Shown here: one piece after another, positions 4,120 through 55,765 of the stretch | How positions within the stretch are numbered: the stretch's first letter is position 1 | How the letters are laid out: each line of letters starts with the position of its first letter | Source: a virus | Lineage: Duplodnaviria; Caudoviricetes | Reading direction: 5' to 3' (one strand) | IMG/VR virus record: IMGVR_UViG_3300011008_000999 | DNA: 64,000 nt | Notes under the pieces: model-generated | Told to the model about the DNA's origin: nothing | The model's database searches: none | Seen by the model: the letters and a program-made list of their open reading frames with translations, nothing else | Made by a program: the position numbers and the translations under genes

Positions 4120-5929
4120 TTATGAACCAAATGTAGAATCTTCATCATCGTCTTCCATGTCTTCTTCACGCTTCTTAGCAAATGGGTTAGAAGTAAGAAG
4201 GTTTACATCATAAATAGACTTGATACGAATAATACCATTACGATTCAATCTATCAATCATGAAGCAAGTACCTGTAGGAAAGTTAGTTGCTGATGATACA
4301 ATTGAATCTACATCAATAGCTGAAGATGGATTGATCTTAGACGTATCAAATGCATCTAAGAACAGCTGTGCTTCTTCCATAGATGACTTGAACATAAACT
4401 TAGTTGTAATGTAGTTTGCAATACCCTTAGGGAAGTGAGAAATACCCTGAGACGCAAGTACAGTAGCAACATTAAGTGAACGACCAAGAACAAGGAATCT
4501 ATCTATAATAGCACCCATCTCCTTGTTACCAAATAATAAGTGCGCCTCATCACAAATAAGTGTTGTAGGAATCTTATTATCACCAGAAAGAATATCAAGT
4601 AACTTTGTAGTTATAATATAAAGAATAGCTGATGTAAATCTTTCATTTGCATCATAGTCTTCAGGTTTCTTAGAATAATCAGGAAGACTAAGACCATGTA
4701 ATGAAATAACCATAGAATCTGTAGATGAAAGTACAAGTGGCTTTACATTTGTTTCACGAGTAAAGAGTAACTTACCATACTTGTTATCTTCAAACATCTT
4801 AAGCAATGTACCAACAGTCTGAGCATATTCATTCTGGTTAGCATAAAGATAGTCTGCAACATCCTGCATATCATAATAATCGCCAGTAGTTTTAGCTCTA
4901 GTAACAAAGTCTGTTACAATAGGTGTAATACCAATAATAGTATTTCTTTCAAGCTTACCACACATGATTTCAATAACAGTCATAAGTGTAGCAGTATCAA
5001 TATACTTAATATTACCTTTCTCGTCGATTTTCTTTAAGAATTCGAACGGATTTAAAGCACCTGGACGAATCTTATTGATGTCAATAATACTGATGTTAGG
5101 ATTTACATTATACAACTTATCAAAGTCGTTTTTAGGGTCAATAGCAATAACTCTTTGACCCATACCTAAACAATTTGCTGCAATATTTAATAGTGCAAAT
5201 GTCTTACCTGAACCAGGAGAACCTACTACAATAGTAATATCGATAGGTAAGCCTTTGAAGTTATCTCCAGCTTTTCCCCCGATCCACACCGTGCATGCGA
5301 TTTTCATCGCACACGGCGTTCCATCAAGATTTAATTATTCTCGAGTTACAATTAAACCATTGACTTGTGGCCATTACTACTATTCTCATTACAAGAATTA
5401 TCGACGCTTCGACCACTACTTTTCAGCATTAGTTAAGTAGCTTATTATTCTTCGTCTACAATCTAAATCGACTAATACCTTTCCTCGTTCCAATATATTC
5501 TATCTGTACATATACTTTTAGGTGCCTACTTTAGACTAATTTAGCTTGGATGTACCCGCCTGATAAATCATTCGTACAACATAGTATTTCATAGCCAAGC
5601 ATTTTACTTTACTACACTAAATTATCTGTATACTTCGTAGGTTCGTCAGATTTCGTTATCATTCTCACCATGAGTATTTTATAGACTTCCGGCATATTCT
5701 GCCGACTTTACCGAGCTTCTAACAATTAAAGTTTCCTTATATATTGCTAGTCGAAGATTAAAGAATGTGTTTCAAGTCGTTACTCTATCATTCCACATTT
5801 CGAATATATTAGTTCTCCATACATAACTGTATGTGTTTAGCCTTTGTGTATTTAAGCTAAAAACGAGTCGCACCCTGGCGCATTATTTACCATCTGAGCA
5901 GTTGTAGGACTCCATTTGATAGTACTCAT
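4120..5929 (-). CDS. VirB4/HerA-like P-loop ATPase, two exons (5929-5874 and 5236-4120) split by a group II intron
   Basis: Spliced frame MSTIKWSPTTAQMVNNAPG-TIVVGSPGSGKT; IDPKND; Walker B LICDEAH; LGRSLN..VLASQ. The ORF-track start at 5307 lies inside the intron. Confidence 0.85.
5237..5873 (-). mobile_element. ORF-less group II intron (about 637 nt, bacterial class B-like)
   Basis: 5' GTGCGACTCG; domain V GAACGCCGTGTGCGATGAAAATCGCATGCACGGTGTG; domain VI ending ACCTATCGATAT; candidate EBS1 CTTGGC (5594-5599) pairs with exon end GCCAGG; removal restores the frame. Confidence 0.92.
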
Positions 5930-5932
5930 TTT

Positions 5933-6967
5933 CTAATTTTCCTCCTTTACTATAGGTCCAACTGAATAAACAGTTCCTTTATTAGTTTTGTTTCTATATA
6001 ATTTTGGAATAGGCATAATAAAATTATTCTTATTAAAGTCTAATTTAGAATATATGTCTTTTCCTAAAATTAACGATTTTAATAATAGCTTTTGTTGTTC
6101 AAAATCTTCAAATTCATATATATGTATTAGACGTATTCCTTTATCTTTGCATAATAATGATTTTTTGAGATGATAATCTTTACTACATCCATTTTCTGTA
6201 GAATGCCAATAGTTTCCATTAAATTCTATAGCTAGCTTTAAATCTGGTAAAAATATATCTAATTCATTTGGATATATAATCTTACGTCTATTTTCTAATA
6301 CTGGTCCAGTATAAAATGACTTAATATAATTTACTAAATCTTTTTCTTTATACGACATTCCAGCATTAGGTGTTATAGAACTTTTGTATTTTACTATTTT
6401 ATCTATATCTGAGTTTTTAACAAATGCATGTGCTTTATATATAGTAATATCCACAATATGTCTCCAACTATCACCATATTCTGGTATTAAATCTGTAACT
6501 AATGTACAATCATTTTCTTTTGCATACTGATCTAATAATTGTTGTTTAGTTAACTTCATTTTAGCCGAATTTACATATATCTCTGAACCATAACGTTCTT
6601 TACAAGTTTGTCTAGTTCTTTGCTGACATTCTTGAGATTTAACTGTATTAGATATTTTTCTTTTTCTTTCAGTAGTATCACCATTCCAAACATTACTTAA
6701 TTTTTGTCTAGTTTCTTTAGAAAATGTATGACCGTAAAAACTATTTAACTTACCTACTTTAGTTTTTCCTATTTCACTGAGTTTTTTATTTCTATTAAGT
6801 CTAACACATTCTGGACATTTACTACTTTTATAAAGAATTTGATGTACAGTTTTAACATAACTGCCATGTGTATCACATACTAACGTTATTGGTGTATCAT
6901 ATGTTACATCATTATATGTAAGATTTGGAAATACTGAATTGAGTCTATTTGCTAAATATGTACTCAT
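5933..6967 (-). CDS. free-standing homing endonuclease (NUMOD3 plus Vsr-like/EDxHD-type nuclease)
   Basis: NSFYGHTFSKETRQKLS; PNELDIFLPDLKLAIEFNGNYWH; GIRLIHIYE. Confidence 0.8.
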   Translation of the reverse strand: MSTYLANRLNSVFPNLTYNDVTYDTPITLVCDTHGSYVKTVHQILYKSSKCPECVRLNRNKKLSEIGKTKVGKLNSFYGHTFSKETRQKLSNVWNGDTTERKRKISNTVKSQECQQRTRQTCKERYGSEIYVNSAKMKLTKQQLLDQYAKENDCTLVTDLIPEYGDSWRHIVDITIYKAHAFVKNSDIDKIVKYKSSITPNAGMSYKEKDLVNYIKSFYTGPVLENRRKIIYPNELDIFLPDLKLAIEFNGNYWHSTENGCSKDYHLKKSLLCKDKGIRLIHIYEFEDFEQQKLLLKSLILGKDIYSKLDFNKNNFIMPIPKLYRNKTNKGTVYSVGPIVKEEN

Positions 6968-13664: not shown

Positions 13665-14060
13665 TTAATCTTTTACTTCGACTAAAGTGTCGATTGACAA
13701 TGGGTTATTTTGAATAATACCAGGCAAAACGGAAGCATCATTACGCTGAGTACAAAGTATACAATGTATTCCAGCAGATCTTCCAAGCTGAGTAATACTT
13801 TGTATGTTACTAATAATCTCGTCTTTTAAAGCGTCTTCAGCTTTACCTTCAGTAGTTTTAATACCAGACTTACCAGTTAACTCTGCAATCTCATCTACTA
13901 CAATCAATAGACGAGGCATTTCATCTGTATAACATTTATCTACACAGTTCTTATTGACTGGAATCCAATGTTCTCCATCAAGTTGAATTTCAAGTTCTGG
14001 CAATTGAACTTCTACTTTTGCTTTAGCATTTTTACCAGTATCATTTAACATCCATCCCAT
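13665..14060 (-). CDS. FtsK-like ATPase fragment (Walker B part) ending in a 12-aa split-intein IntN (13668-13703)
   Basis: PRLLIVVDEIAEL; QLGRSAGIHCILCTQR; ends IIQNN|PLSIDTLVEVKD, an intein block A pattern with Pro1. Confidence 0.85.
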   Translation of the reverse strand: MGWMLNDTGKNAKAKVEVQLPELEIQLDGEHWIPVNKNCVDKCYTDEMPRLLIVVDEIAELTGKSGIKTTEGKAEDALKDEIISNIQSITQLGRSAGIHCILCTQRNDASVLPGIIQNNPLSIDTLVEVKD

Positions 14061-16149: not shown

Positions 16150-17874
16150 TTAATTATCATCTTCTAAATCTTCCTCAGATTCATTATCGAAGTAGAAACC
16201 GATCTTATGTTCTTTGTCTTTACCTCTATTGAAAATACGAGTAAGATTTAACATTCTTCGGCCATCAAAGCCTTTTTCATCACCTTCAGCATCTGCAAAT
16301 GTATAGAACTGAAATATAAAGCTTTCATTTACATCAAGTTCAATATTAGTAAGAATCGCTACACCTGAAGAAGCATTGAATTCTTTAATATGTGTTCTAA
16401 GCTCATCTAATAATTCAATTGGTTTATAGACAATAATATTATTTCTAAGTCTACCGCGCTTCTCAAAGTAATATGTTTTATTTTTAAGAACATTTGCTCT
16501 AGCTGTACCAGCGACACTTTCAAGTAATGGTTTAGTGAGTCTAGGATCTCTTGAATTATCGATAAGAGTTTCAAAGACTTCTTCCCAACCTCTTACCCTG
16601 TCATAATAGTCAGCTAATCTATGTTTAGCTACATATTTAGCAACTGCTTTACGATCTTTTTCTGGTGTATCATAGAAGTCATAGAAAATTTTAAGCATAT
16701 TAAGTATATGCTCTTCGAGTACATTGAGATCAATAATATCTCTATACATATTATAGATAATATATCTAGGTGCGTCAGACTTATACTTAGTTAATGCTCT
16801 CTGAACTGCACTAAAATATCCTAAACTTAACGCTGTATCAATATCTACACAGATAGTCATAGCTTCCAGACCAGATGACTGATATTCTTTAAACATCTTA
16901 TGTCTAAACTCAATTACTCTAGAATATTCTACATACGTCTTAATATTATTAAGAAGTTTGTTTTTAATATTTTCACCTATTGAAGAATCAGTATAGTTAG
17001 ACATAGTTATGTTTCGTTTAACTTCAGTCTTAGCAGTTTCAAAATAATCTGACAGTTTTAACTTATATGATGCATTAGAGTTTAACATACCTGCAACTCT
17101 ATTTTCTAAGTTAGGTACATTTACAGTTAAGAATTTATCGACATTTTCAATAAGCTGAGTAGTACTAACAGTGCTTCCAGATGTCCAAATCTTAGATTCT
17201 ATGTCTCTAATCCACTTTAAGATCTCGTCTCTAACTGCATCTAATTCCTTAGACTTTCTTTCAAATTCAGCTTGTTCCTGAGCTCTTTGCGCTTTGAAAT
17301 CAGCTTGTATTTTATTAAACTGTCCTTCATCAATTTCAACTACTCGACCTTTATCTAACTTACCGTAGAATACATAACCAGCATCATTTCTTACATAAGG
17401 TCTATAACACTTAACACGAAATACCCATTCAGTTCCACAAGGGAAATTTTCTGAATAAGTTTTCCATTCAGTAGATAAATCAAATGTACTTATGAGATTT
17501 TGAGGTCTAGTATAGCTAAATCTTGATCCATCATAATAACTTTCAAGTAAAGCTTTACCTTTAGCTTTTATAGTTACGTCATCATCAGCAAGATCAGTTT
17601 GAATATCAATAATTTTAGTTTCTTTTCCATCTTTACGCGTATATGGAATAAGTTTAGCTGTTACAGTAATAACACCACTTTCGGACTTTTTAGGTACAGT
17701 AAATGTAACAGTTTTTCCAGCCACAATCTGTTCAAGATGGTCTTCAGTCATATATCCTGGTTCAAAATAGTTATCATATACTTCTTTAAATATAGATAAG
17801 TTCTTTTTCTTACCAGCAGCATCAGTATATGAGTAATACCAACCATATGGACCATTTATTACTTTATTAGCCAT
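16150..17874 (-). CDS. hypothetical protein with an N-terminal repeat resembling 22583-23095
   Basis: 574 aa; TEDHLEQIVAGKTVTF..TAKL resembles TDEEVAALLAGQTIKF..TGKL. Confidence 0.75.
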   Translation of the reverse strand: MANKVINGPYGWYYSYTDAAGKKKNLSIFKEVYDNYFEPGYMTEDHLEQIVAGKTVTFTVPKKSESGVITVTAKLIPYTRKDGKETKIIDIQTDLADDDVTIKAKGKALLESYYDGSRFSYTRPQNLISTFDLSTEWKTYSENFPCGTEWVFRVKCYRPYVRNDAGYVFYGKLDKGRVVEIDEGQFNKIQADFKAQRAQEQAEFERKSKELDAVRDEILKWIRDIESKIWTSGSTVSTTQLIENVDKFLTVNVPNLENRVAGMLNSNASYKLKLSDYFETAKTEVKRNITMSNYTDSSIGENIKNKLLNNIKTYVEYSRVIEFRHKMFKEYQSSGLEAMTICVDIDTALSLGYFSAVQRALTKYKSDAPRYIIYNMYRDIIDLNVLEEHILNMLKIFYDFYDTPEKDRKAVAKYVAKHRLADYYDRVRGWEEVFETLIDNSRDPRLTKPLLESVAGTARANVLKNKTYYFEKRGRLRNNIIVYKPIELLDELRTHIKEFNASSGVAILTNIELDVNESFIFQFYTFADAEGDEKGFDGRRMLNLTRIFNRGKDKEHKIGFYFDNESEEDLEDDN

Positions 17875-17888
17875 GATCGATACCTCCT

Positions 17889-18698
17889 TTAGTTCGAATT
17901 AAAATGGTTATAAATAACTTGAATCATCTTAGGTCTAATTGTTATGAAATAAACTGCCTTGAAACAATCATCTGCTGCCATAGATAGTCCAACTTTCTGT
18001 GTAACTTCTTTTAAGTAGTCTGAATTATTATAAAATACTGACTGTAACATCTTAGAAGCAGCTGTATAATTTGGCCAAGCAAGTTCGTATTTTTCGTCAT
18101 TAAAGTTTGAATTAAGTGTATTTAAGTATGTTTCATCAATTCCATGTTCAGAAATATACTCAAATTCATCTTCATAATAAACTAAAATACTTTCAACCCA
18201 ATCATTATACTCATTTACATCAGTATCAATATTTAAACTAAGTGATTCATCTATAATTACTTTACTAATAGCTGATTTAAACTCCTTCATTCCAGGAGCA
18301 TTAGCCAGTTTCTGGAATGCATAGTTATGCCCAGTTCTTTCTAATAGATAATCATAACATTCATAGCAGTGAGATACAGTCATATCATGATTATAACTAA
18401 TATACTCAGAGATCTCCATATTATCTCTACTCCAGCCCTGTTTATTATTACCTACTTCATCCTGGACAACCGCTTTAAGTTTACCTGCAAACCAATGTTT
18501 AATCCAAGCTTCAGCTCTACCTCTGAAACCGCTATCCCATTTATCATTATCAATAATAAGACCAGTTCCTTCAGTATGACAATATTGCCAATACTTATTC
18601 ATTCCAGGACTATTTTCCCATTTACCATCAGATAACTGACCAATAACACCATCAATTATTCTAGCTCTAGTTGTGTTTCCTAAACTAATTGTCATCAT
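17889..18698 (-). CDS. hypothetical protein
   Basis: 269-aa ORF with RBS. Confidence 0.75.
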   Translation of the reverse strand: MMTISLGNTTRARIIDGVIGQLSDGKWENSPGMNKYWQYCHTEGTGLIIDNDKWDSGFRGRAEAWIKHWFAGKLKAVVQDEVGNNKQGWSRDNMEISEYISYNHDMTVSHCYECYDYLLERTGHNYAFQKLANAPGMKEFKSAISKVIIDESLSLNIDTDVNEYNDWVESILVYYEDEFEYISEHGIDETYLNTLNSNFNDEKYELAWPNYTAASKMLQSVFYNNSDYLKEVTQKVGLSMAADDCFKAVYFITIRPKMIQVIYNHFNSN

Positions 18699-25891: not shown

Positions 25892-26353
25892 TTATACCTC
25901 CTCAAATTTCTGCTCTTTACGATTATCGATCTCAGCATGCTCACCACTAAAGTCAATAACTGTAGTAGAGTTCATGTTATCGAGATCAATTTCTCCTTCA
26001 AGTTTTACGTCATCAGCAACCTGTGACGTCATTCCACTATAACCTAAATCATCAAGACCACGTTGTTTGAAATATGTCTCTGTAATCCATTTCTGTTGTT
26101 CAAAATAATATTGAACACGAGAAATCTGACCTTGCATCTTAGTTATACCTGCACCTTTATGAGTACCATCTACAGTAGTACCAAGTGTCGAACCAAGAGC
26201 CATCATTGATGCAGTCTGTTCCAAACGTCCAGCAACGATCTAAATACGAGCAGCACAATTATGGGTAAAGATCATTTTCTTATCCATTGTTGTTCCACTC
26301 TTATTTAGATCACCTCCTTTACGTTTAAAAACTTTTTCTAAAATATTTAACAT
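25892..26353 (-). CDS. split-intein IntC (ends THN at 26258) fused to the C-terminal FtsK-like ATPase fragment; in-frame TAG at 26240-26242
   Basis: RBS plus MLNILEKVFKRKGGDLNKSGTTMDKKMIFTHN|CAARI*IVAGRLEQTASMMALG..KGAG..RVQYYF, in frame with ORF 25892-26224. Confidence 0.8.
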
Positions 26354-48115: not shown

Positions 48116-48664
48116 TTATGCTATTAAAGAAGAAATATGATAACCTCTAACAAAATCATATGTTTCTTCTACATTTAAAAGTGTTTTAGCTGTATCTTCA
48201 ACAAAGATTATTTCTCTGTTGTGTTTATCATGAATTTCTTTTAACTTTTCCAGTTTTTCCTTTGAATTTCTGACATGAATCACATTTTCTTCTTTTATAG
48301 TTGGAAAAAATTTTTTTATAGCTTCATTTTTTCCTTTTTCGACATTTTCCTGCGTTACAGTTAAAATATATACATCTTCTTCATATAATTCATTTAATAT
48401 ATACTGCATTGTTTTAGGAATTTTAACGTTTTCATAAATATTATGTAATTTTGAATATTCGTTTATATCATTATCTTTACAAGGAAGAAGTCTATCATTT
48501 GCATAATCAAAATGTGTTAATGTTCCATCAAAATCAAATACAATAGTTTTAAATTTCAGTAAAGATATAAGATCCAAAACATTTCTTATATATTCTTCTT
48601 TTAAGCTAGATATATCAATATCATTTAACATTCTTCCAGCGTTTATAATATTATCACCAAACAT
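48116..48664 (-). CDS. HAD-superfamily hydrolase
   Basis: IVFDFDGTL; FVEDT. Confidence 0.8.
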   Translation of the reverse strand: MFGDNIINAGRMLNDIDISSLKEEYIRNVLDLISLLKFKTIVFDFDGTLTHFDYANDRLLPCKDNDINEYSKLHNIYENVKIPKTMQYILNELYEEDVYILTVTQENVEKGKNEAIKKFFPTIKEENVIHVRNSKEKLEKLKEIHDKHNREIIFVEDTAKTLLNVEETYDFVRGYHISSLIA

Positions 48665-48785
48665 ATATTAAAATTAAACTTACCTTTCTTGAATAATTAT
48701 TTCTCCCTCATAGAATATAATATGCAGCTTAGCGATGACGGCACTATTACTCAAAGACTTATAGCTTCCTTTGCTCCCTGCATAT

Positions 48786-49214
48786 TTAATTGTAGAGATA
48801 CTCGTATATCTCCAATGCTGACATTTCTTTTTCTTCACCAGCAATTCTAACTTTAATCTTTTCATCCTTGTCAAATTCTCTACCAGTGATCCAAACTTTT
48901 CCTGTCCAATCAGTAGGCTTGTAGTCTGCCATATCATTCAGACCTATTTTCTGCATCTTCTTATTTCGAGAATACATAACAGATCTACCTATTCTCAAAA
49001 TTTCTGCAGCTTCTTGAACTGAGTTAGCAACTGCAACTACACCATTCATTCCTTTAAAAGGATAAAATTCTGTCTGTTTTATATCAACTAACGCAACTGA
49101 TATTTTATTGTTATGTTCAATTTATTTTAGGCACTAGGCCTAAATACAATGGAATATGACATTCCTCAAAGTAACACTATTGTGCGAAATGAGTCCTCGT
49201 TTAGCTGTCTCCAT
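48786..49214 (-). CDS. 12-aa split-intein IntC fused to FtsK-like ATPase fragment (post-Walker A); 24-nt in-frame stop-containing gap at 49119-49142
   Basis: Strong RBS; METAKRGLISHN|SVTLRNVIFHCI[gap]EHNNKISVALVDIKQTEF..EAAEIL..MYSR, in frame with ORF 48786-49049. Confidence 0.8.
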
Positions 49215-49521
49215 TGTAATCATCACCTCCTTTTATAAACTGTTTAGTTTGAGCTATATTTTTACATTGTTTACAACAATACATCTGATAACCTCTTGTA
49301 AAGTTAATGTACTTAGTAGGTTTATTACAAACTAAACATTTCCCTTCATTATTAGATTTTATATATGTATCATAATATTCTTTGCAAGTAATCTGTTCAT
49401 CAAATCTAATATGCGCAGACAGATAATTACCATTTTGAAAAGTCTGATTACATATTAGACATGTCATTGGATTATTTTTTATTTTAGGTACATATTCTTT
49501 TCCACAAATAAGACATTTCAT
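49201..49521 (-). CDS. Zn-finger-only member of the homing endonuclease family
   Basis: CLICGK; CLICNQ..HIR; EGKCLVC..YCCKQC; no nuclease domain. Confidence 0.75.
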   Translation of the reverse strand: MKCLICGKEYVPKIKNNPMTCLICNQTFQNGNYLSAHIRFDEQITCKEYYDTYIKSNNEGKCLVCNKPTKYINFTRGYQMYCCKQCKNIAQTKQFIKGGDDYNGDS

Positions 49522-49626
49522 GTTATTTCTCCTTAATAGAAATATAATAAAGCAGCTTGATGATTAAGGCATCATTATCTCTTTAGTTAGCTAGACCAAA
49601 GCTACCTGCTGTATTATTAAATAGTC

Positions 49627-49917
49627 TTAGTACATAAGTCGTGTTTCTCCATGATTAGTAAGAACAAATAAAGTTTCTTCTGATTTCTTTATTACATAAT
49701 TCTTAAGTTCATAGTCATAAATCTGAATTTCAGTATCTGTAGGAATAGATTTAAGATATAACATATCCCATTTAATATTCATGACTTTTTCTAAGTCATC
49801 TTCAGATGCAAAATCTTTGAATCCTAAAGTTTTTCCTGAGCTATACATAAGGCCTATAAGATTTCCAGCTTTAGAAAGTTTATAGGCGTCTCTAATCAAT
49901 TTTTCTAACATAGTCAT
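49627..49917 (-). CDS. hypothetical protein
   Basis: ORF with RBS. Confidence 0.65.
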   Translation of the reverse strand: MTMLEKLIRDAYKLSKAGNLIGLMYSSGKTLGFKDFASEDDLEKVMNIKWDMLYLKSIPTDTEIQIYDYELKNYVIKKSEETLFVLTNHGETRLMY

Positions 49918-49953
49918 ACCTCCTATTTAAGTCTTTTGACTTTTTATTATTAG

Positions 49954-50337
49954 CTAACCTCTCTGATCAAATTCCCAACCTTTTTTATCATCATACCAAA
50001 AAGTGAGGAAAGTACAACCATTAGATCCACCAGATGGATGAGTATATCTAAAACTTGCAGTTCCCCAATAATGAGGTATAGTTTCTTCTCCATCATCTGA
50101 TCTACAGTATACTTCAGAGTTAAAATTAGCAATATAGATTTCTTTAAACATAAGCTTTAAGAATCCAACCTGATCTGCTAAATCCTGAGATTCAAAATCA
50201 ATAATTATAGTACCTCTAGATTCTCTTACTTTCTTAGTAAATTTAAGATCAGTTAGATCAGTAAGTCTTCTAAGTTCTGAATATAACTCCTCCATAGGAA
50301 TATTTTCAGCCCATTCTAAAAGTTGTTCTTGTGTCAT
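49954..50337 (-). CDS. hypothetical protein
   Basis: ORF with RBS. Confidence 0.7.
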   Translation of the reverse strand: MTQEQLLEWAENIPMEELYSELRRLTDLTDLKFTKKVRESRGTIIIDFESQDLADQVGFLKLMFKEIYIANFNSEVYCRSDDGEETIPHYWGTASFRYTHPSGGSNGCTFLTFWYDDKKGWEFDQRG

Positions 50338-55408: not shown

Positions 55409-55765
55409 TTACTGCACATAGATCGCGAATTGATGATCTGGTGCATCAGTAGTAATACATTGTACTATTTCAGGATCTATTTTTCTAATAGATTTAATAG
55501 TTGGTCCGTCTTTTGTTCCAACATGTCTACCTTTATACCAATCAAATTCTTGATATATACCTTCAGCATCAATTGTGTACATTTTATCATTTATGAATAC
55601 ATTCCACTGATGCACATTAGAACATTTAACTTTACCATTACTAAATGTAATTTCATACATATTGTAAGATACTTTAGCAGTAGTCTTTTCAATTACTTTA
55701 TGAAACTGTCCATCAGTTCCTAGTACTAAGTCACCTACTTCAACCTCTTCAATAGTTTTCTTCAT
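55409..55765 (-). CDS. stand-alone class 3 intein core (IntM; HINT domain lacking blocks A and G)
   Basis: TIEEVEVGDLVLGTDGQFHKV; YEITFSNGKVKCSNVHQW (block B His plus Trp); VQCITTDAPDHQF (block F Cys); own RBS and stop; no extein. Confidence 0.88.
   Translation of the reverse strand: MKKTIEEVEVGDLVLGTDGQFHKVIEKTTAKVSYNMYEITFSNGKVKCSNVHQWNVFINDKMYTIDAEGIYQEFDWYKGRHVGTKDGPTIKSIRKIDPEIVQCITTDAPDHQFAIYVQ

Follow-up and report, generated by a model that had tools for sequence, protein, structure and literature searches.

How could a gene whose coding sequence is broken by three in-frame stop codons still give rise to one continuous, conserved protein? This question is raised by a minus-strand gene at 49214-48786 of the window, the whole 64,000-nt stretch of DNA analysed here, which encodes a split-intein C-fragment joined to an FtsK-like fragment. 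The gene belongs to a circular rumen element of 332 kb found in ruminant gut metagenomes; its record spans 331,944 bp, carries terminal repeats and uses the standard genetic code. A preliminary description of the locus had proposed ribosomal bypassing of the type known from T4 gene 60, and the comparison with relatives lends this proposal strong support (39 variants, purifying selection, compensated stems and a T4-like hairpin geometry). We assign programmed ribosomal bypass a probability of about 0.8, based on comparative sequence analysis. The features concerned are:

49201-49521, minus strand: endonuclease gene, internally deleted, 106 aa, zinc fingers only; overlaps the start of the FtsK piece
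49221-49230, minus strand: Shine-Dalgarno-like GGAGGTG upstream of the start, seen in the sequence
49143-49214, minus strand: 5' coding part, 24 codons, with a putative 12-aa intein C-fragment ending in His-Asn, the +1 Ser and 11 FtsK residues; the last codon is the take-off ATT
49145-49218, minus strand: predicted 5' stem, 49218-49210 (including the start codon) pairing with 49153-49145 just before take-off; the region folds with -18.6 kcal/mol
49126-49144, minus strand: predicted take-off/A-site hairpin of 7 bp with the take-off codon and UAG in its 5' arm, as in T4 gene 60
49119-49142, minus strand: coding gap of 24 nt with TAG in the A site, two further in-frame stops and the landing ATT; missing from gap-free homologs
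48786-49118, minus strand: 3' coding part, 110 codons, FtsK/SpoIIIE-like ATPase middle fragment; weak PF01580 match, purifying selection
26237-26245, minus strand: candidate second hop site, ATT TAG ATC, with a 6-nt gap; gap-free in G001 (L129)

Results and discussion

The gap interrupts a conserved FtsK fragment

Translation starts at ATG 49214-49212 and reaches the take-off codon ATT at 49145-49143, which is followed by TAG at 49142-49140. The landing ATT is located at 49121-49119 and coding resumes with GAA at 49118-49116. The ATT-flanked gap described earlier was found in the minus-strand sequence with its three in-frame stops (TAG, TAG and TAA). When the 24 nt are skipped, an open reading frame of 134 aa ending at 48786 results, while termination at the TAG leaves a peptide of 24 aa. 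Skipping had been predicted to give FHCI-EHNNK at the join, and exactly this reading was found in gap-free homologs (P0001, P0122, L015, L018-L021 and L130), where FHCIEHNNK is uninterrupted; the gap is therefore a true insertion. The 5' coding part aligns with P0001 and P0002 and, after the Asn, with the unsplit P0122 directly after the Walker A sequence GGGK. The 3' coding part, whose first ATG lies 23 codons in (49049), is 84-86% identical to the unsplit proteins P0121-P0126 (383-385 aa). In these unsplit homologs the Walker A motif runs directly into SVTLRNVIFHCI and then into EHNNK without a gap.

The same 24 nt are present in L033, which comes from a different assembly, and the insert of L014 differs only in its last base, the third base of the landing codon. 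Hence the gap is not an assembly slip, and it belongs to a family of 39 variants among relatives. Among Logan contigs of relatives, RNA contig X15 ends at 49113, with five bases left to the gap. A stem-loop at 48727-48785 (minus strand) directly follows the stop codon of the FtsK piece; it is conserved in L002 and has no Rfam match.

FtsK is encoded in four pieces

The N-terminal FtsK piece (G000 5009-6301) is 60% identical to P0122 1-258 and ends in GGGK plus a short intein-like tail. As judged from this ending, the first 12 residues of the middle ORF, with His-Asn before Ser, are a split-intein C-fragment, and we infer that it splices. Two further pieces are encoded at 13665-14060 and around 25892-26350 of the window; one junction between the four pieces is free of an intein. 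The preliminary description expected that stopping at the TAG would release a 24-aa IntC peptide. Its length is correct, but it would consist of 12 aa of IntC and 12 extein residues rather than of IntC only. Owing to this composition, the stop product would itself be splice-competent and might yield a dead-end truncated FtsK.

Extein-free Hint-like proteins are encoded at 55409-55765 (minus strand) of the window and at G000 17599-18189 (L113). They lack the first and last intein strands and carry Trp and Cys at class 3 positions. Considered alongside the short tails of the FtsK fragments, these proteins suggest natural three-piece split inteins. In G003, Arg-Ile of a paralogous FtsK piece at about 250255 is followed by stop codons and an inverted repeat, which may reflect decay or a different type of gap, and a PolA-like DNA polymerase gene (G000 133266-135882) is present as two ORFs with short novel tails.

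Related inserts occupy six sites

In relatives we found 39 distinct inserts of 5-38 nt at six sites in two FtsK pieces (about 35 loci), four of the affected codons being in the middle gene and two in the C-terminal piece; because the loci are related, these counts overstate independence. At each of the six sites the last codon required is immediately followed by an in-frame stop, and 37/39 inserts open with such a stop. The A-site codon is TAG in 36 inserts, TGA in one and a sense codon in two, the latter lying in a hairpin. Once the inserts were removed, the same protein was restored in every locus. Some loci contain two gaps and L025 contains three; up to three gaps fall within 35 codons. 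A further 10-nt allele was seen in one sequencing run. Several database proteins turned out to be gap alleles translated with TAG as Gln.

In 27/39 inserts, the final triplet of the gap shares positions 1-2 with the take-off codon (random expectation 0.10 per case). Landing is cognate in 17/18 gaps of at least 15 nt compared with 10/21 shorter ones, and the remaining short-gap landings have one mismatch with a pyrimidine-compatible third base. In total, 12/39 landings are only near-cognate, CGT to CAC being a weak match. In L132, two AAC codons at the intein Asn|Cys junction enclose a gap of 12 nt. The intein Asn and the +1 Cys, which need a covalent link, are on either side of this insert.

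The second hop site of the window (26245-26237) is located in the C-terminal FtsK piece (25892 end), five codons downstream of the intein His-Asn|Cys junction. The 3' arm of a stem formed with 26311-26278 includes its take-off codon, stop and landing codon, and six other versions of the site were found in relatives.

Termination at the TAG followed by separate (re)initiation downstream, with FtsK assembled non-covalently, would also spare the ribosome a hop. FtsK is already made in four pieces with an intein-free junction, and ATT is occasionally used as a start codon. However, the landing codons GTC, ACC, CTC, CAC, AGT and AAC are not starts, the gaps lack a Shine-Dalgarno sequence, tandem gaps would leave fragments of 7-13 residues, and the insert of L132 separates residues that have to be joined. 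We regard this explanation as very improbable.

Genome-wide homology and ab initio scans of G000 were noisy, and stricter versions gave only the two FtsK sites; hops are thus not established as genome-wide. When viral contigs were scanned for the DNA pattern, 42 matches were obtained, 41 of them by chance. Four apparent inserts at codon 35 were recognized as group I intron starts and dropped from the set. In the FtsK middle gene, group I introns occupy codon 35 in L002, L022, L024, L032-L035, L038 and L040 (with an Rfam match in L034) and often co-occur with hop gaps.

Evidence that the region downstream of the gap is translated

Among carriers, codons 19-35, i.e. 17 codons past the landing site and before any ATG, showed pS of 0.89 and pN of 0.083. 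With synonymous sites saturated and nonsynonymous sites not, the part 3' of the gap must be translated, which makes a pseudogene unlikely. A decayed gene with the insert as a lesion or an assembly error would fit the upstream endonuclease, which is itself broken. Against this stand the occurrence of the insert in independent assemblies, a nonsynonymous change near zero after the gap among carriers and the compensated stems described below, so that we rate its probability as extremely low.

Readthrough of the stop or reassignment of TAG would likewise allow translation of the downstream part. The A-site stops are mostly TAG, a sigma-factor gene of G000 has TAG at a Gln position, and G002 may encode a tRNA with a UUA anticodon. 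But the frame is changed by 16/39 gaps, whose length is not a multiple of three, and the gap of the window also contains TAA; these two observations exclude readthrough. In addition, 121 ordinary genes in four related genomes end in TAG and no CUA tRNA was found in G000. Taken as a whole, readthrough or reassignment has a minimal probability.

The sigma-70-like gene is located at G000 30348 (L114, about 10348), and its TAG, where G002 has Gln, may represent a nonsense allele or readthrough. The tRNA with anticodon UUA, a possible ochre suppressor, was predicted by ARAGORN in the tRNA cluster of G002. In G000, the region 144222-171197 encodes about 40 tRNAs, including some with A34 anticodons (Thr AGU, Leu AAG, Arg ACG), as well as tmRNA and an SmpB-like protein. 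A search for special hopping tRNAs found none, the Ile(GAU), Leu(AAG) and Arg(ACG) tRNAs of the element being ordinary by eye; no element-encoded release factor was found and ATT-TAG is not avoided at true gene ends.

RNA structures around the take-off site

The hairpin reported earlier, with the first ATT-TAG in its 5' arm, is present as a 7-bp structure at 49144-49126. Its pattern occurred once in the window and in 0/100 shuffles, whereas the fold z-score alone was only -1.6. The arrangement in the window (ATT TAG GC CTAGT GC CTA) closely follows that of T4 gene 60 (GGA TAG CC TTCG GG CTA). In 12 long inserts at site C, the take-off stem is kept with three different loops, and GAAA or 3-nt loops are found in relatives.

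The predicted 5' stem is extended by pairing of 49209-49206 with 49161-49158. At least 7 of its 8 pairs were formed in 17/17 site-C carriers compared with 2/12 non-carriers, and folding energies were -12.4 and -6.8 kcal/mol, respectively. One pair is compensatory: the base after the ATG covaries with the third base of a Phe codon (G-C ten times, A-U seven times). Carriers of site D showed no gain of the 5' stem. In the second gene, which encodes the C-terminal piece, a stem including the take-off codon and UAG reached -14.6 to -22.4 kcal/mol in carriers compared with -5.5 kcal/mol in the gap-free allele, and cognate arms paired better than swapped ones (-18.2 vs -12.0).

Other signals of T4 gene 60 were looked for. 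A mini-SD 5-7 nt before the landing codon was not found in the window and occurred in only 3/18 long gaps. A barrier hairpin 3' of the landing site was not enriched (-3.5 kcal/mol in the window; carriers -3.8, non-carriers -4.7). Take-off is preceded by only 24 residues without a KKYK-like motif, which leaves no room for a T4-like nascent-peptide signal. Rfam gave no match at 48300-50000. According to one proposal (10.1101/2024.12.09.627546), forward bypassing is powered by pairing of the mRNA that exits the ribosome, and works most effectively when no second ribosome follows. Both the start-codon stem and the stem of the second gene agree with this proposal.

The stems could also guide a cleavage of the RNA. 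The gap might be a micro-intron, removed by a nuclease and ligase or by a trans-acting ribozyme that is guided by the 5' stem. Every insert begins in a T-TAG context, group I and group II introns are present in the same genes and elements, and G001 encodes RtcB. On the other hand, RtcB is missing from G000, G002 and G003, and gaps of 5-6 nt have no internal structure. A group I register (U...G) that preserves the protein was found in only 5/39 inserts and a group II register (GU...AY) in 0/39. Moreover, excision predicts neither in-frame stops at six sites nor landing codons read by the same tRNA. We therefore consider excision from the RNA to be quite unlikely.

The gap travels with an endonuclease gene

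With 87% identity, the internally deleted ORF (49201-49521) aligns with residues 272-368 of its L014 counterpart. At the same place, L002 and L014 have 368-aa zinc-finger versions with a DUF7487 (Pfam) match, and the version of L008 matches TnsA-like endonucleases. An endonuclease-type ORF is found directly upstream in many carriers and is absent from the syntenic gap-free L130; L049 and L047 are carriers without it, and some upstream endonucleases accompany other insert sites. Between the window and L002, L014, L032 and L033, pS was 0-0.09 upstream of the gap and 0.9-1.2 downstream. On the tree of the 3' exon the insert is scattered, requiring 8 changes, the same as after shuffling. Near-identity up to the gap, saturation behind it and the scattered insert are the pattern of the T4 MobA element, in which the endonuclease is transferred along with a recoded gene start and a gap that guards against re-cutting (10.1101/2022.08.31.505936). 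Judging from this pattern, the 5' exon and the gap are inherited as a block with the upstream endonuclease gene, and the block ends at the landing codon. By analogy, we infer that the gap protects against re-cutting by the endonuclease.

It had also been suggested that the hop limits production of the splice-competent fragment. This idea did not gain support, as gap-free alleles are common and the inserts use six codons, are scattered on the tree and travel with a homing-endonuclease cassette, all of which points to an insert that is selfish and tolerated, not to a regulatory one. If the hop were maintained in order to throttle FtsK assembly, its restriction to FtsK pieces in genome-wide scans, the stacking of several hops in series and the masking of the start codon by the 5' stem would be accounted for. 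The site, length and number of gaps vary freely, however, and the endonuclease gene, 5' exon and gap move as a block. Within the hopping interpretation, we see a regulatory role as unlikely.

The surrounding element

No relatives were found among named phages and plasmids. Profiles for Terminase_6N, Terminase_6C and sheath proteins had no match in four complete records (G000-G003). These records are filed as viruses and encode TrwB-, VirB4-, ParA- and FtsK-like ATPases as well as huge surface proteins. The empty terminase and sheath searches, together with the TrwB- and VirB4-like ATPases, suggest that we may be dealing with a giant conjugative element. Group II intron domains (Rfam RF02004, RF00029) were observed at 5237-5817 (minus strand) of the window, just upstream of a VirB4-like AAA_10 ORF (4120-5307), and a 344-aa ORF (5933-6967) lies upstream of these domains.

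A model for bypassing

With a probability again of about 0.8, the best reading is a programmed bypass that is tolerated as homing-endonuclease protection and does not serve regulation. The ribosome would synthesize 24 residues and pause at AUU, to which peptidyl-tRNA-Ile is paired, while UAG occupies the A site. Folding of the UAG into the take-off hairpin would keep the release factor out, and the mRNA leaving the ribosome would zip into the 5' stem and drive the ribosome forward; this stem would also mask the start codon from a trailing ribosome. The tRNA would then re-pair with the AUU 24 nt further on and coding would resume at GAA. Trans-splicing would then link the resulting 134-aa IntC-FtsK fragment with the N-terminal piece (G000 5009-6301). 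The insert itself would exist because a free-standing cassette of endonuclease, recoded 5' gene end and gap replaces its target site and the gap then blocks re-cutting, as in T4 mobA/gene 60; repeated rounds would lead to several gaps per gene.

A farther-reaching, stem-driven version of this model has, as a whole, an even chance of being correct. It holds that gaps of 5-38 nt in these rumen elements, which are giant and perhaps conjugative, would be hopped efficiently by ordinary bacterial ribosomes with the mRNA stem alone as the driver. The ribosomes would do so without a nascent-peptide signal or mini-SD and often without an exact landing match. Up to three hops would occur in 35 codons, even inside an intein splice junction, and serial hops and multi-piece trans-splicing would together build one FtsK motor.

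Comparison with known bypassing systems

To our knowledge, published programmed bypassing is confined to T4 gene 60 and its topoisomerase homologs, the yeast mitochondrial byps and candidates in Streptomyces phages. Our literature search found no paper on the clade or on bypassing combined with split inteins. [quoted passage not shown] GNRA loops are known from that system as well (10.1101/2022.08.31.505936). The T4 MobA homing-endonuclease cassette, as described by Manning & Atkins (bioRxiv 10.1101/2022.08.31.505936, citing Bonocora 2011), likewise combines an endonuclease, often decayed, with a recoded 5' gene end and a gap up to the landing codon.

There are clear differences. The target here is an FtsK-like ATPase with intein tails and not a topoisomerase (II large subunit with NTE/CTE), and the gaps lie only 5-31 codons from an intein junction. 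Take-off uses Ile, Leu, Arg, Val, Asn or Met instead of Gly or Asp. Gaps measure 5-38 nt compared with a published range of 20-50 nt, the gap of T4 gene 60 having 50 nt (10.1101/2022.08.31.505936). Six sites are used, with up to three gaps per gene and frequent near-cognate landing, and the mini-SD and barrier hairpin of T4 gene 60 are absent. The nuclease is DUF7487/TnsA-like, whereas that of MobA is an HNH enzyme, and there is no sequence homology. The locus works like T4 gene 60 but stands outside the MobA/topoisomerase family, and it is not a yeast byp.

The byps of Magnusiomyces capitatus mitochondria share several inserts per gene, a relaxed match of take-off and landing codons and a polymorphic presence (PMC5009743; 10.1101/2022.08.31.505936). 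In contrast, byps are 27-55 nt long, contain an unassigned sense codon and are bypassed by mitochondrial ribosomes, while here UAG is a working stop in a bacterial host. A further parallel is found in synthetic stop-hops, in which 9 nt are read as one residue (PMC5009743): CTT TAG CTT, ATT TAG ATC and the 5-nt versions have exactly their +6/+5 form. Those hops were artificial and occurred at a low level, whereas the sites described here are natural, under selection and provided with a conserved stem. According to a 2016 review, no natural in-frame stop-hop was known (PMC5009743).

Such genes are miscalled in databases as truncated ORFs or as translations with TAG as Gln, which can be mistaken for code reassignment. 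The 39 gaps form a natural allelic series with a compensated 5' stem, in which bare stop-hops mark one end and gaps with a T4-like hairpin the other. With this series the driver of forward bypassing becomes directly testable, setting the pairing of exiting mRNA against the nascent peptide and landing match. To the known systems, the locus adds six sites, tandem hops, near-cognate landings, a compensated start-codon stem and a coupling to split inteins and trans-splicing.
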